Source: a virus
Direction: 5' to 3' (one strand)
Virus genome (UHGV): UHGV-0281096
Length of the DNA stretch: 24,424 nucleotides
The position numbers and the translations under genes were made by a program. The notes below the pieces were generated by a model, which was given only the letters and a program-made list of their open reading frames with translations, was not told the DNA's origin and made no database searches. This document shows, in pieces, positions 1,587 to 24,424 of this stretch. The first letter of the stretch is position 1; every line of letters starts with the position of its first letter.

Positions 1587-1789
1587 CGTTCTCAGTAAAA
1601 ACCATTCCAGACATGCTCGTTGAAGCATACGGAAACCAGACAGAAGTAGCACGCAGACTGAAATGTAGTCGCGGTACGGTCAGAAAATACGTTGATGATA
1701 AAGACGGGAAAATGCACGCCATCGTCAACGACGTTCTAATGGTTCATCGCGGATGGAGTGAAAGAGATGCGCTATTACGAAAGAATTGA
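1583..1789 (+). CDS. ninH: NinH
   Basis: 68 aa [37 protein letters not shown]... (HTH-like), matches lambda NinH; ATGA overlap with ninG stop. Confidence 0.8.
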
Positions 1790-2432
1790 TGGCAGCAAAT
1801 ACCGAAATATTTGGGTAGTTGGCGATCTGCACGGATGCTACACGAACCTGATGAAAAAACTGGAGACGATAGGATTCGACACCAAAAAAGACCTGCTTAT
1901 CTCGGTGGGCGATTTGGTTGATCGCGGTACAGAGAACGTCGAATGCCTGGAATTAATCACATTCCCCTGGTTCAGAGCTGTACGTGGAAACCATGAGCAA
2001 ATGATGATTGATGGCTTATCAGAGCGTGGAAACGTCAATCACTGGCTGCTTAATGGCGGTGGCTGGTTCTTTAATCTCGATTACGACAAAGAAATTCTGG
2101 CTAAAGCTCTTGCCCATAAAGCAGATGAACTTCCGTTAATCATCGAACTGGTGAGTAAAGGAAAAAAATATGTCATCTGCCACGCCGATTATCCTTGTGA
2201 TAAATACGAGTTTGGAAAGCCAGTTGATCATCAGCAGGTAATCTGGAACCGCGAACGAATCAGCAACTCACAAGACGGGATCGTGAAAGAAATCAAAGGC
2301 GCGGACACGTTCATCTTTGGTCATACGCCAGCAGTGAAACCACTCAAGTTTGCCAACCAGATGTATATCGATACCGGCGCAGTGTTCTGCGGAAACCTCA
2401 CATTGATTCAGGTACAGGGAGAAGGCGCATGA
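1767..2432 (+). CDS. ninI: NinI, lambda-type Ser/Thr protein phosphatase
   Basis: Metallophosphatase motifs GDLHG, GDLVDRG, GNHE in translation; near-identical to lambda PPase from MRYYE; ATG 1767 preceded by GGAG; track start 1758 is GTG. Confidence 0.9.
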
Positions 2433-3052
2433 GACTCGAAAGCGTAGCTAAATTTCATTCGCCAAAAAGCCCGATGATGAGCGACTCACCACGGGCTACT
2501 GCTTCTGACTCTCTTTCCGGTACTGATGTGATGGCTGCTATGGGGATGGCGCAATCACAAGCCGGATTCGGAATGGCTGCATTCTGTGGTAAGCACGAAC
2601 TCAGCCAGAATGACAAACAAAAGGCTATCAACTATCTGATGCAATTTGCACACAAGGTATCGGGGAAATACCGTGGCGTGGCAAAGCTTGAAGGAAATAC
2701 TAAGGCAAAGGTACTGCAAGTGCTCGCAACATTCGCTTATGCGGATTATTGCCGTAGTGCCGCTACGCCGGGCGCAAGATGCAGAGATTGCCACGGTACA
2801 GGCCGTGCGGTAGATATAGCAAAAACAGAGCAGTGGGGGAGAGTTGTTGAGAAAGAGTGCGGAAGATGCAAAGGCGTCGGCTATTCCAGGATGCCAGCAA
2901 GCGCCGCATATCGCGCTGTAACGATGCTAATCCCAAACCTTACCCAACCCACCTGGTCACGCACTGTTAAGCCGCTGTATGACGCTCTGGTGGTGCAATG
3001 CCACAAAGAAGAGTCAATCGCAGACAACATTTTGAATGCGGTCACACGTTAG
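2429..3052 (+). CDS. Q: Late-gene antiterminator Q
   Basis: 207 aa; zinc-finger-like CRDCHGTG...CGRCKGVG; near-identical to lambda Q as recalled; ATGA overlap with ninI stop. Confidence 0.9.
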
Positions 3053-3094
3053 CAGCATGATTGCCACGGATGGCAACATATTAACGGCATGATA

Positions 3095-3130
3095 TTGACT
3101 TTTTGAATAAAGTTGGGTAAATTTGACATC
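3095..3130 (+). promoter_or_regulatory. pR'-like late promoter with qut region (-35 TTGACT 3095-3100, 17-nt spacer, -10 TAAATT 3118-3123)
   Basis: Sequence seen directly; position immediately downstream of Q and motif arrangement match lambda pR'/qut as recalled. Confidence 0.6.
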
Positions 3131-3159
3131 AACGATGGATAAATGCACTCGTTAAATAA

Positions 3160-3195
3160 AGCCCTGAGTTAATATCTCGGGGCTTTTTGCGTTTT
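3160..3195 (+). terminator. Rho-independent terminator about 35 nt downstream of the predicted pR' start
   Basis: Stem AGCCCTGAG (3160-3168) / CTCGGGGCT (3176-3184), one G-U pair, followed by TTTTTGCGTTTT. Confidence 0.55.
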
Positions 3196-3331
3196 AAGCA
3201 CGGCCTTTCTGAAAGCACATCAAACCAAATACCAGACAGACAAAAATAATCACCTTATCCGCTGTGGCTACGGTGCGGTGTGCTTTGCATAAAAGAAAAC
3301 CAGCGCAATGGCTGGCTTCGTGAAAGCGGGT

Positions 3332-4936: not shown

Positions 4937-5458
4937 ATGAATATCGTGCCACTTAATTACAAAGGTGAAATTGTCAGTTTCAACACTGATGGTTGGATCA
5001 ACGTCACAGGTGTTGCTGAGAGATTTGGGAAACGCATTGATAACTGGATGCGTTTGGCAGAAACGCTTGAATACGTTCGTGCTTTAGACGAAGCGTTGAC
5101 CGGGAAAGAATCTGAAATTTTACATCCCTCACAATCGAGGTATGTAAAAACCAGCAAGGCACGAAAGGACAGGGGTGGTGGTACGTGGCTACATCCAAAA
5201 CTTTCAGTTGCATTTGCCCGTTGGTGTGATGCTCGTTTTGCTGTGTGGTGCGACCTGCACATTGATAGTCTGCTTCGCGGTGAACTGACTGAGCAGCAGA
5301 AATATGAGCAAGCATGTCGCATTCGCGATGACCGGAAATCAAAAGCCAGCAATGGGGCAAGAGAGATGGCTCGCTGGCGATGGGATAAGCCGGTTATTGA
5401 AGCAAATGTTGAGTACTGGCGCGAGCAACTGCAGTTGACTCTCGATATCGCGTGCTGA
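4937..5458 (+). CDS. KilA-N domain protein
   Basis: 173 aa; N-terminal pattern FNTDGWINVTGVAERFGKRIDNW...GTWLHPKLSVAFARWCDARFAVW fits KilA-N DNA-binding domain as recalled. Confidence 0.65.
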   Translation: MNIVPLNYKGEIVSFNTDGWINVTGVAERFGKRIDNWMRLAETLEYVRALDEALTGKESEILHPSQSRYVKTSKARKDRGGGTWLHPKLSVAFARWCDARFAVWCDLHIDSLLRGELTEQQKYEQACRIRDDRKSKASNGAREMARWRWDKPVIEANVEYWREQLQLTLDIAC

Positions 5459-21967: not shown

Positions 21968-22044
21968 GGTGTGATGGTAATCCTTGCTCACTAAATTTAA
22001 GGATGCGAATCTTTCCGGCCATAGGAGTAATCATGATTTACCCA

Positions 22045-22581
22045 TCAAACAACCCACCAGTTTGCCTGATTGGATACCAGCCTTGCAGTTTTTATGGAAT
22101 TAATTATGCCATGCTCAAGAGCCTTGTTAGCATCCAAAATGGTCGAGTCTGCTATCAGGGATGCCCACCTAATATGGGTTCCGATGTCGATATTGAACGT
22201 CTCAACGAAGCGATCAAGATCGTTATCGAGGCATTTCCCGTACTCTCTCAATCTGGCATGGTCGGCGGCTGGGGAGGCAAAGCACCATAATAGAGGATGT
22301 AACAGGAATCTTGATAATGGGTTTGCGAAACGTTCTGAGCCAGCCAGGAAAACGATATTAGCTATGGATTCAACATTGCTTATGTTGTGAGTTCTAACGG
22401 TAACAGGGAGTGACTTAAGAAAGTTATACGCAGTAAAGCCAGCGGCAGTTTCCCCTCCCTGACTTGATATATGGATATTTAATTCAGTTGCGCCTTGAGA
22501 TAATGCGGTGAGACAGTGGTTCTGAAGTTGCCCAACAGTGGCAGTGTTAACGGGGCATAAGAAATGAATTGTGTGCAGCAT
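22045..22581 (-). CDS. ClpP-fold (S14-like) serine peptidase
   Basis: 178 aa; hand alignment to E. coli ClpP core: IHISSQGGETAAG vs YINSPGGVITAG, ESIANIVFLAG vs ASMGAFLLTAG (Ser), FLLHPL vs MIHQPL (His), ADSTILDANKALEHG vs RDRFLSAPEAVEYG (Asp); TAATG overlap with mnt stop. Confidence 0.7.
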   Translation of the reverse strand: MLHTIHFLCPVNTATVGQLQNHCLTALSQGATELNIHISSQGGETAAGFTAYNFLKSLPVTVRTHNISNVESIANIVFLAGSERFANPLSRFLLHPLLWCFASPAADHARLREYGKCLDNDLDRFVETFNIDIGTHIRWASLIADSTILDANKALEHGIINSIKTARLVSNQANWWVV

Positions 22582-22835
22582 TATTTATCATCCTTGCCAT
22601 AAATCTTTTTAAGTGTCTCAAACACAACGGCCTTGAACTGCTCTGCTTGCTGATCAGCCAAGCGTTCAGCTTCGTCTCGATAGCCTGCACTCGGTGATGG
22701 CTTTGAGAGAGCATCCTGAACGATTTGTAATAACTCAGAGTTCATTGACCTTCCGTTAGCCTCTGCTCTTAATTTCAATTTTTCTCTTACTTCCAAAGGC
22801 ATACGGAAGTTAAAGTGCGGATCGTCTCTAGCCAT
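22581..22835 (-). CDS. mnt: Mnt repressor (Arc/MetJ ribbon-helix-helix)
   Basis: 84 aa MARDDPHFNFRMPLEVREKLKLRAEANGRSMNSELLQIVQDAL... very close to P22 Mnt as recalled. Confidence 0.85.
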   Translation of the reverse strand: MARDDPHFNFRMPLEVREKLKLRAEANGRSMNSELLQIVQDALSKPSPSAGYRDEAERLADQQAEQFKAVVFETLKKIYGKDDK

Positions 22836-22858
22836 GCCATCACTCCAAGTTAGTATCT

Positions 22859-23116
22859 CTAACTTTCGTCTTTATTGTTGCTATACATGCATTTCAACTT
22901 CTCAACATCATGTTCAAGATCTATCAATCGTGATGCTATAGTTGCAAGGTCTAGTGCTTGAATGTGTTTATTTTTTTCGGTCCATGCTTCAAGTGCCGCG
23001 ACCATCTCAGCATTTAATGAACGAGAATTAGCCTCAGCCAGTTCAATAAGACGTTCCTTTATCTCTACAGGAAGCCTCAGATTCACTTGAGGGTTTTTGT
23101 ACTTACGATCAGACAT
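22859..23116 (-). CDS. Arc/Mnt-family RHH protein, paralog 2
   Basis: Start ATG 23116 (M3 of track ORF); PQVNLRLPVEIKERLIELAEANSRSLNAEMV is an RHH motif; divergent helical C-terminal region. Confidence 0.65.
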   Translation of the reverse strand: MSDRKYKNPQVNLRLPVEIKERLIELAEANSRSLNAEMVAALEAWTEKNKHIQALDLATIASRLIDLEHDVEKLKCMYSNNKDES

Positions 23117-23133
23117 CGGCACATCCTGAATAA

Positions 23134-23373
23134 TTATTTACCATACATGGTCTTTAGCGTCTCAAGTAGCGCCTCTTTGAATTTATCAGCTTCTTGGTTA
23201 GCGAATCCTTCAAGTGAGCGAGAGCCATCAAGATTATCAACATGTTTTTGAAGGATAAGCACGATCTCTGAGTTCATTGATCTGCCGTTTTTATCCGCTT
23301 CTTGCTGAATGCGTTTCTTTAAATAGTCTGGAATCCTAATCCCCAATGGACTGATATCTCTTGCACCTTTCAT
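23134..23373 (-). CDS. Chimeric RHH repressor: Arc-like N-terminus with Mnt-like C-terminus
   Basis: Start ATG 23373 with AGGAGG 5 nt upstream; N-terminus MKGARDISPLGIRIPDYLKKRIQQEADKNGRSMNSEIV parallels the arc product; C-terminus GFANQEADKFKEALLETLKTMYGK parallels Mnt C-terminus. Confidence 0.7.
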   Translation of the reverse strand: MKGARDISPLGIRIPDYLKKRIQQEADKNGRSMNSEIVLILQKHVDNLDGSRSLEGFANQEADKFKEALLETLKTMYGK

Positions 23374-23481
23374 TTCTCCTCCTGCACGCTGTGCATAGCT
23401 ACACAGTGTAGGCAAAAAAATTTTGACTTTAAATAAACACGGTGTAGTATTTAGTTATCACGGTGTAGCAAGTGAGGGGAA
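23374..23481. promoter_or_regulatory. Divergent Pant/Pmnt-like promoter-operator region
   Basis: TTGACT (23423-23428) - 16/17 nt - TAGTAT; direct repeats CACGGTGTAG at 23438-23447 and 23459-23468, degenerate copy CACAGTGTAG 23402-23411; imperfect palindrome CTGTGCATAGCTACACAG 23389-23406. Confidence 0.45.
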
Positions 23482-23622
23482 ATGAAAGTTAGAGACATCG
23501 CTCCATTAGGGATTCGTATCCCGCCAGAGATTAAAGAAAAATTGAAGGAAAAGGCTAAGGAGGAGGGCAGGTCTTTAAATTCAGAAATAGTGCAGCGTCT
23601 TATTCGCAGCCTAAAAAGTTGA
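23482..23622 (+). CDS. arc: Arc-like repressor (RHH)
   Basis: Not in ORF track (<60 aa). Hand translation [46 protein letters not shown]; GAGGGGA RBS; same family as P22 Arc, sequence diverged. Confidence 0.7.
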
Positions 23623-23651
23623 AGCCCCAACTGCGGGAACAGTCAGGGCTT
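23621..23651 (-). terminator. Hairpin in arc-ant spacer acting as minus-strand terminator (candidate 3' end of a sar-like antisense RNA)
   Basis: GAAGCCC (23621-23627) / GGGCTTC (23645-23651); on the minus strand followed by AACTTTTTAGG. Confidence 0.35.
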
Positions 23652-23684
23652 CGGTTGTCAGTAAATCCGTGGAGAAAAACCAAC

Positions 23685-24424
23685 ATGAATAGTATAGCAA
23701 TTTTAGAAGCAGTGAACACCTCTTACGTACCATTCAACGGTCAGCAAATTATCACCGCCATTGCTGCCTGAGTTGCATATGTTGCGATGAAGCCAATCGT
23801 TGAAAACCTTGGAATGAGCTGGTCAACGCAGCAAACAAAACTCATGAAGCAGATTAGCAAATTCAACTGTGTTCATATGAACATGGTTGCCGCTGATGGG
23901 AAGCTTCGTAAGCTACTCTGCCTTCCTTTGAAGAAGTTAAATGGATGGCTGTTCAGCATCAACCCTGAGAAAGTTCGTGCTGACATCCGTGATAAACTGA
24001 TTCAGTACCAGGAGGAATGCTTTAGCGTGCTGCATGACTACTGGACTAAAGGCTATGTAGTTAACCCACGCAAATCTAAAAAGGCGTTGCCGGGTAAAAT
24101 CACCACTGAACAGCAGGAAGCCATTAAACAACTCGTCATGAGTCGCGGTCAGTCTCTGCCAAAAGAAAAACAGGCTAAGGCGATGATCACCATGTGGTCG
24201 TCACTGAAATCCCATTTTGGATGTTCGTACAAAGAAATCAGTGAGGAGCAGTTTACAGAAGCACTGTCACTTGCAGCTCGAGTTCCGCTTGAAGGTGAGT
24301 TCATCGGCAAACAAGAGAAGAAAACCAACGAGCTTTCTGCAAAAGAAGCAAACAGCCTTGTATGGTTATGGGATTATGCCAACCGCTCACAGGCATTATT
24401 CCGCGAACTGTATCCGGCGCTAAA
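23685..24424 (+). pseudogene. ant: Antirepressor Ant, interrupted by in-frame TGA at codon 29 (23769-23771); runs off window end
   Basis: ATG 23685 with GGAG upstream; [28 protein letters not shown]-stop; same frame stays open for 217 more codons to window end; translation is P22 Ant-like. Confidence 0.7.

Follow-up and report, generated by a model that had tools for sequence, protein, structure and literature searches.

The antirepressor gene ant of a gut coliphage carries a TGA at codon 29, and in all likelihood this stop is a natural, circulating mutation that has left a dispensable gene null or strongly hypomorphic, in a young allele spread by modular recombination. The window (the whole 24,424-nt stretch that was analysed) covers the right half of a phage genome of the P22-like, HK620-like type and ends in immI, the region known as the "ant moron". 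It carries nin genes and the genes for the Q antiterminator, lysis, terminase, portal, scaffold, coat and ejection proteins, and the host range is E. coli and Salmonella. Apart from ant, the phage genes of the window are intact, with lengths as in annotated relatives. A gene for a KilA-N domain protein (4937-5458, + strand) lies between the lysis genes and terminase; in phage phiv205-1 a Rha protein is annotated at the corresponding place.

Results

A nonsense codon within the N-terminal domain of Ant

The ant frame begins at ATG 23685, behind a Shine-Dalgarno GGAG read directly at 23671-23674 (+) and kept in P22, epsilon34 and UPF_BP1. Twenty-eight sense codons are followed by TGA at 23769-23771, so that sequence, frame and alignment together delimit a 5′ fragment at 23685..23771 (+). 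Past the stop the same frame stays open for 217 sense codons (23772-24422), and this remainder, codons 30-246 of the gene (23772..24424, +), runs off the end of the window. The chance of an open frame of 217 codons after a stop is (61/64)^217, or ~ 3e-5, and what we observe is therefore far beyond chance. The part of the gene 3′ of the TGA matches 311-aa proteins annotated as "phage antirepressor Ant" with E = 4e-135 and 99% identity. A P22-type Ant is expected to have an uninterrupted frame of ~300-311 codons; here that frame is broken at codon 29, and the window thus holds a gene that is ant by descent and is not intact. This layout, a ribosome-binding site and ATG, a TGA at codon 29 and then an open frame to the window end, had been described in a sequence-only reading of the same DNA, and our analysis agrees with it. 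That reading overlooked a second substitution, a G>T at 23762 (+) that lies 7 nt upstream of the TGA and changes ATG to ATT (Met26Ile); comparison with relatives places it as private to the lineage of the TGA allele.

Alignment with intact homologues identifies the TGA as a G>T change at 23769 in a GGA codon for Gly29. P22, epsilon34, UPF_BP1 and an E. coli prophage all read GGA at codon 29. A survey of 80 ant loci on viral contigs included 19 with the N-terminal type of the window, and each of these has GGA29; 2 of the 80 contain a premature stop at another position. The earlier guess that intact P22-like ant genes would have GGA or something similar here is thus correct for these homologues, and together with the position of the stop inside a protein domain it upholds the proposal of a nonsense mutation rather than a short gene. 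The domain is P22_AR_N (PF10547), which covers residues 14-124 of intact Ant (profile positions 2-113 of 115). TGA29 falls at about profile position 17 of 115, and the frame that follows it matches positions 23-113 of 115 with E = 1e-36, so the stop cuts the window's copy of the domain in two; of P22_AR_C (PF10548), profile positions 1-36 of 73 fit before the window ends. Because the TGA lies inside P22_AR_N, which runs across this point in intact homologues, it is not a natural gene boundary, the one finding among homologues that the sequence-only reading had said would overturn it.

The segment upstream of the stop contains a motif, V15-P16-F17-x-G19, that is invariant across Ant types as divergent as 70-80% identity, as is Met35. 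In a scan of 1.8 billion representative proteins, nearly all hits that cover the N-domain align from query residue 10-15, and only a handful begin at residue 25, 35 or 44. It is this conservation that suggests an important role for residues 1-34. A structure search found no solved structure of an Ant relative, and an AlphaFold model of Ant built from 20 sequences (>=91% identical) reached a pLDDT of 37 and was discarded.

The same double allele in other assemblies

The ATT26 + TGA29 double allele is present in seven other metagenome assemblies, which come from different samples and projects in ENA and Logan: L087 (OOAF01003472.1), L089 (SAMN10845130), L090 (SRR12159398), L091 (SAMN15422447), L092 (ERZ1310477, two samples), L093 (SAMEA10031096) and L094 (SRR413731, human gut). 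All 7079 nt of L087 match the window with 100% identity, and this contig could be either a sibling assembly or the source of the window itself. It was the single match of an exact-pattern metagenome scan for the TGA allele; exact-pattern scans of genome contigs and viral contigs returned no match, and the allele is absent from GenBank phage records.

The frame is open in 8 of 8 ATT26 + TGA29 copies and in one further carrier of the stop, E. coli LR14, to the normal stop where the contig reaches it; in L089-L094 this normal stop is at codon 312. When 810 nt of ant were compared with 23 relatives, the G>T at 23762 was the only change in the window shared with none of them. The TGA site is shared with a single relative, and all other differences of the window are polymorphisms of intact alleles. 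The TGA copies differ from each other at 0-4 synonymous sites, all within a 50-nt stretch. To judge from the lack of any further private change in these 810 nt, the lesion in ant is young. With no more than 4 clustered synonymous differences between copies, the comparison has no power to detect purifying selection after the stop, and because the carriers are nearly identical to intact alleles, the open downstream frame says nothing on selection.

E. coli LR14 (NZ_CM188746.1, a complete genome) has the same TGA with ATG26 kept. Its ant differs by 3 nt from the intact allele L021 and by 33 nt from that of the window, and RefSeq calls the remnant that starts at Met35 (locus L005, 3053-3886) as an ordinary 277-aa CDS and not as a pseudogene. 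The tract 23620-23809 is identical in the LR14 and window haplotypes, which would fit either a short conversion patch or a second origin of the LR14 stop. No further E. coli complete genome among the 203-217 matching ones carries TGA29.

One ant cassette in different phages

The ATT26 + TGA29 allele occurs next to either of two unrelated arc modules on its upstream side and with either of two tailspike receptor domains, and it is therefore present in at least two kinds of phage. In L090 and L091 the arc module is unrelated to that of the window, and the sequences part where arc stops and the sar terminator lies, 70 nt before the ant ATG. The mosaic junction, at about 23614/23615, is sharp: on one side the ant cassette is identical, and on the other the arc modules of L090 and L091 bear no relation to that of the window. 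The boundary for recombination seems to be the conserved sar region; in the CUS-3 record a "boundary sequence" is annotated under the match. The sequence-only reading had suggested that loss of Ant may interact with the expanded repressor set of this phage. This link is not borne out by L090 and L091, where the allele accompanies an arc module that is both different and smaller.

The ant of L091 matches that of the window at every one of the 740 nt that can be compared. A tailspike gene follows ant in L091-L094 and in annotated relatives. The receptor domain of the L091 tailspike differs: the head-binding N-terminus is shared and the sequences are unrelated after about 1100 nt. This divergence implies different host receptors for phages with the same ant allele. 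Between L091 and L092/L093 the tailspike genes are 95-100% identical for about 900 nt, corresponding to the head-binding N-terminus. L091 also contains, at 1626-3240, an "ant moron" with a C2-like repressor (HTH_3 + Peptidase_S24) and a second antirepressor-like gene (Bro-N + P22_AR_C), which could perhaps stand in for the function of the broken ant.

Regulatory elements and neighbouring genes

The region has the arrangement of immI, with ant downstream of arc, sar antisense at the 5′ end of ant, and the tailspike gene downstream. A consensus scan located a Pant-like sigma-70 promoter (TTGACT, 16 nt spacer, TAGTAT) at 23423..23450 (+), upstream of the arc-like gene; it was the single match, a number that shuffled sequences also give (mean 1.0), and its position corresponds to Pmnt/Pant annotated in epsilon34. 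The first gene of the ant operon, at 23482..23622 (+), encodes an arc-like ribbon-helix-helix repressor of 46 aa (Pfam Arc PF03869, E = 5e-13), a homologue of which RefSeq annotates as a YlcI/YnfO family protein. The sar antisense RNA lies at 23617..23684 (-) over the ribosome-binding region of ant. Its match to Rfam RF00262 spans the full model (1-68 of 68) and scores 95.6 bits, where the gathering threshold is 43; the terminator hairpin of sar is 23621-23652. Transfer of coordinates from the epsilon34 annotation places Psar at 23691..23719 (-), inside ant codons 3-12, in a span where the window is identical to epsilon34. Both substitutions, at 23762 and 23769, fall outside sar and Psar. To judge by these matches, the regulatory parts around ant, namely the Pant-like promoter, the arc-like gene and sar, look intact.

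Four ribbon-helix-helix genes of the Arc/Mnt family surround Pant in the window (22581-23622), where P22 has one mnt and one arc. One is the arc-like gene, and the other three stand in tandem on the minus strand: an mnt-like gene of the true Mnt type (84 aa, 22581-22835) and two Arc-family genes of 87 aa (22859-23122) and 79 aa (23134-23373). This minus-strand trio is also present in L092 and L094. Directly downstream of mnt is a gene for a ClpP-like protease (22045-22581, -; PF00574, E = 2e-11), the start of which overlaps the mnt stop; RefSeq annotates the same layout in several E. coli prophages, and in L092 a Rap1a-domain gene takes the place of the protease gene.

A predicted hairpin and the origin of the two substitutions

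An imperfect inverted repeat at 23762..23851 (+), with arms at 23762-23790 and 23823-23851, is predicted to form an mRNA hairpin that encloses both the stop and the Met35 codon (MFE -30.6 kcal/mol, z = -2.09). Each of the two G>T changes adds a U-A pair to this hairpin, worth about -0.8 kcal/mol apiece. A templated origin of the changes from the quasi-palindrome was considered and rejected: the gain in stability is small, ranking 57 and 65 among 363 possible substitutions; the intervening mismatches at 23766 and 23768 were left uncorrected; and the arm is weaker in LR14. No second copy of the mutated 17-mer that could have served as donor was found in the window. Each G>T destroys a small palindrome (CCATGG at 23758-63 and CCGG at 23767-70), and both strike the 5′ G of a GG step. 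The probability that two such sites would fall within 7 nt in 810 nt is roughly 2%; the clustering is unlikely by chance.

Possible translation beyond the stop

The first in-frame ATG after the stop is the conserved Met35 codon (23787..23789, +), 15 nt past the TGA, and this is a possible reinitiation site. Gene callers start the carrier reading frames either at Met35 (277 aa; product P0121, five ENA contigs) or at Met54 (P0119), and both products contain PF10547 and PF10548. Reinitiation calls for an in-frame start within tens of nucleotides of the stop, which ATG 23787 provides, and for an SD-like sequence or an accessible start. There is no Shine-Dalgarno sequence within 5-10 nt of this ATG, the nearest GAG being 14 nt away, as the sequence-only reading had remarked in finding none that was obvious. 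Positions 23788-89 are paired in the minimum-free-energy hairpin, leaving the AUG partly buried.

Discussion

Altogether these results argue for a model in which a single nonsense codon has inactivated, or very nearly inactivated, an otherwise ordinary ant gene. We envision that the ant mRNA would be made from Pant as usual, under the control of the arc-like repressor and sar. Ribosomes initiating at ATG 23685 would come off after 28 codons, with a short peptide as their product, and the remaining 282 codons, which encode most of P22_AR_N and all of P22_AR_C, would stay largely untranslated, such that the phage would make little or no antirepressor. We infer a loss of Ant function. The allele would then have moved into different phage backbones by the modular recombination that is typical of immI. 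Such modular exchange and a high flux of the "ant moron" region have been described before (PMC2629481).

Why such an allele should be tolerated is suggested by what is known of P22, where immI is dispensable and lysogeny was less frequent, not more so, once everything from mnt to ant had been deleted (PMC11016777). The sequence-only reading had proposed that loss of Ant would stabilise lysogeny, an idea to which this deletion lends no support. Since Ant and immI are dispensable for both lytic growth and lysogeny, the TGA29 allele can be carried. No polar effect on the tailspike gene is to be expected, because late transcription is Q-antiterminated. The allele may be neutral or mildly advantageous, for example as a suppressor of harmful over-expression of Ant. 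In P22, ant- suppresses the growth defect that results from over-production of Ant in arc- phage. A recombination event that brings in a heterologous arc module could have a similar consequence, and loss of ant could then offer relief. A literature search on defence-escape selection on ant turned up nothing relevant (PMC12111858).

Two of the alternatives to a natural null allele find little in their favour. The first possibility that comes to mind is that the TGA is an error of sequencing or assembly, with a true codon GGA and an intact ant. The two changes are both G>T and lie 7 nt apart, in which respect they look like oxidative-damage artefacts, and at least one carrier contig is thinly covered (the L092 record name gives cov 4.97). 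However, seven further assemblies, drawn from different samples and projects, share the allele with both substitutions, and the TGA without its partner is present in a complete E. coli genome, that of LR14. The sequence-only reading had asked for such an error to be excluded, and in light of these carriers we consider it very improbable. The other proposal is that nothing is broken, either because the region naturally consists of a 28-aa gene and a 277-aa gene or because the TGA is read as an amino acid, be it by a suppressor tRNA, as selenocysteine or under an alternative code. The gene calls of RefSeq and ENA do begin at Met35, and the ancestral codon is one for Gly, the meaning that UGA has in genetic code 25. 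Yet a single Pfam domain spans the stop in intact homologues, and hundreds of 311-aa homologues have GGA at this codon. Decoding of the TGA is further at odds with its use in the window, where TGA ends 11 of 27 genes, 4 of them in a TGA-G context, and with the hosts themselves, E. coli and Salmonella. The window has no tRNA gene, and in 22000-24424 only sar and a sub-threshold ctRNA match Rfam at E<=1. TGA is thus an ordinary terminator here, with neither a tRNA gene nor a recoding element found in these searches that would point to programmed UGA recoding, and we find a natural boundary or a decoded TGA scarcely credible.

A more serious alternative is that ant is attenuated and not dead. In this scenario the first 28 codons serve as a leader reading frame, and reinitiation at Met35 or bypass of the UGA yields a low level of N-truncated or near-full-length Ant with some function, for which the allele is maintained; bypass could take the form of readthrough by tRNA-Trp, which would put Trp at the Gly position, or, alternatively, of a hop from GCC28 to GCA31. 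Restarts after nonsense codons are established in E. coli, as is the leakiness of UGA, the leakiest of the stops. The Met35 AUG is only 15 nt past the TGA, a ribosome terminating there would open the outer stem of the hairpin in which this AUG is sequestered, and the Met35 frame has been accepted by gene callers and RefSeq. In addition, the frame downstream is open in all eight double-allele copies and LR14, the allele resides in at least two phage backbones, and the same stop occurs on a second haplotype. These last observations hint that ant could still be used; they are equally expected of a very young neutral allele, and the TGA copies are too close to intact alleles for an open frame to reveal selection. 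Against attenuation, the AUG at 23787 has no Shine-Dalgarno sequence upstream, and a product initiated there would be without profile positions 1-22 of 115 of P22_AR_N, the invariant VPF-G motif included. Natural members of the family almost always have this N-terminal segment, and the 277-aa form was found in 0 of the 120 closest protein clusters. We therefore regard a maintained, attenuated ant as unlikely, though worth keeping in mind. A bolder version, in which TGA29 is a selected attenuating recoding that was favoured for the trickle of Ant it allows, spread among gut P22-like phages whose arc modules and tailspikes differ, and arose on or was transferred to a second haplotype (LR14), with a sar-controlled leader followed by Met35 restart or UGA readthrough and with Met26Ile as a linked modifier, strikes us as doubtful to a greater degree. 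A null or strongly hypomorphic allele remains the reading we favor, and expression of Ant from it is probably not strictly zero, given the leaky UGA and a conserved AUG 15 nt downstream.

The immI region described here closely resembles that of P22. The order of an arc-like gene, sar on the opposite strand, ant and the tailspike gene is shared, and P22 Ant has the same P22_AR_N and P22_AR_C domains. At the nucleotide level the ant of the window is about 84% identical to that of P22 and 98-99% identical to those of UPF_BP1, epsilon34 and E. coli prophages. It differs from P22 ant in having TGA in place of GGA at codon 29 and Ile in place of Met26. Upstream, the arc gene is a different 46-aa ribbon-helix-helix allele, with the mosaic junction about 70 nt before the ant ATG, and the single mnt of P22 has its counterpart in three opposite-strand ribbon-helix-helix genes, one of the Mnt type and two of the Arc family.

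Decay of ant in P22-like phages has already been described: HK620 and Scho1 carry degraded ant genes (Villafane et al. 2008, PMC2629481). As in the window, functional ant has been lost from an otherwise complete P22-like phage in a region of high flux. Unlike in those phages, decay in the window is at its earliest stage, a single nonsense codon with the rest of the reading frame and the regulatory elements intact, and the allele is common to several circulating phage genomes. Point nonsense mutations in ant have a precedent in the laboratory as well. Susskind, Botstein and colleagues reportedly obtained amber mutants of P22 ant that gave viable phage. The allele described here is distinct from these ambers in being natural, found in metagenomes and one isolate, in being an opal TGA, and in having arisen under no known selection.

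The finding is an ordinary one that opens no long-standing question, and its practical value, which is small, lies in annotation. The 277-aa "phage antirepressor N-terminal domain-containing protein" that begins at Met35 is most probably what is left of a gene hit by a nonsense mutation, and the corresponding calls in RefSeq (LR14) and in the ENA metagenomes should be flagged as a pseudogene or disrupted gene. If restart or readthrough does yield functional Ant, the allele would be a natural case in which a premature stop attenuates a toxic regulator. On the reading we favor, it captures the decay of ant at its first step, within the rapidly evolving "ant moron", where a null allele travels as a cassette between regulatory modules and tailspikes.
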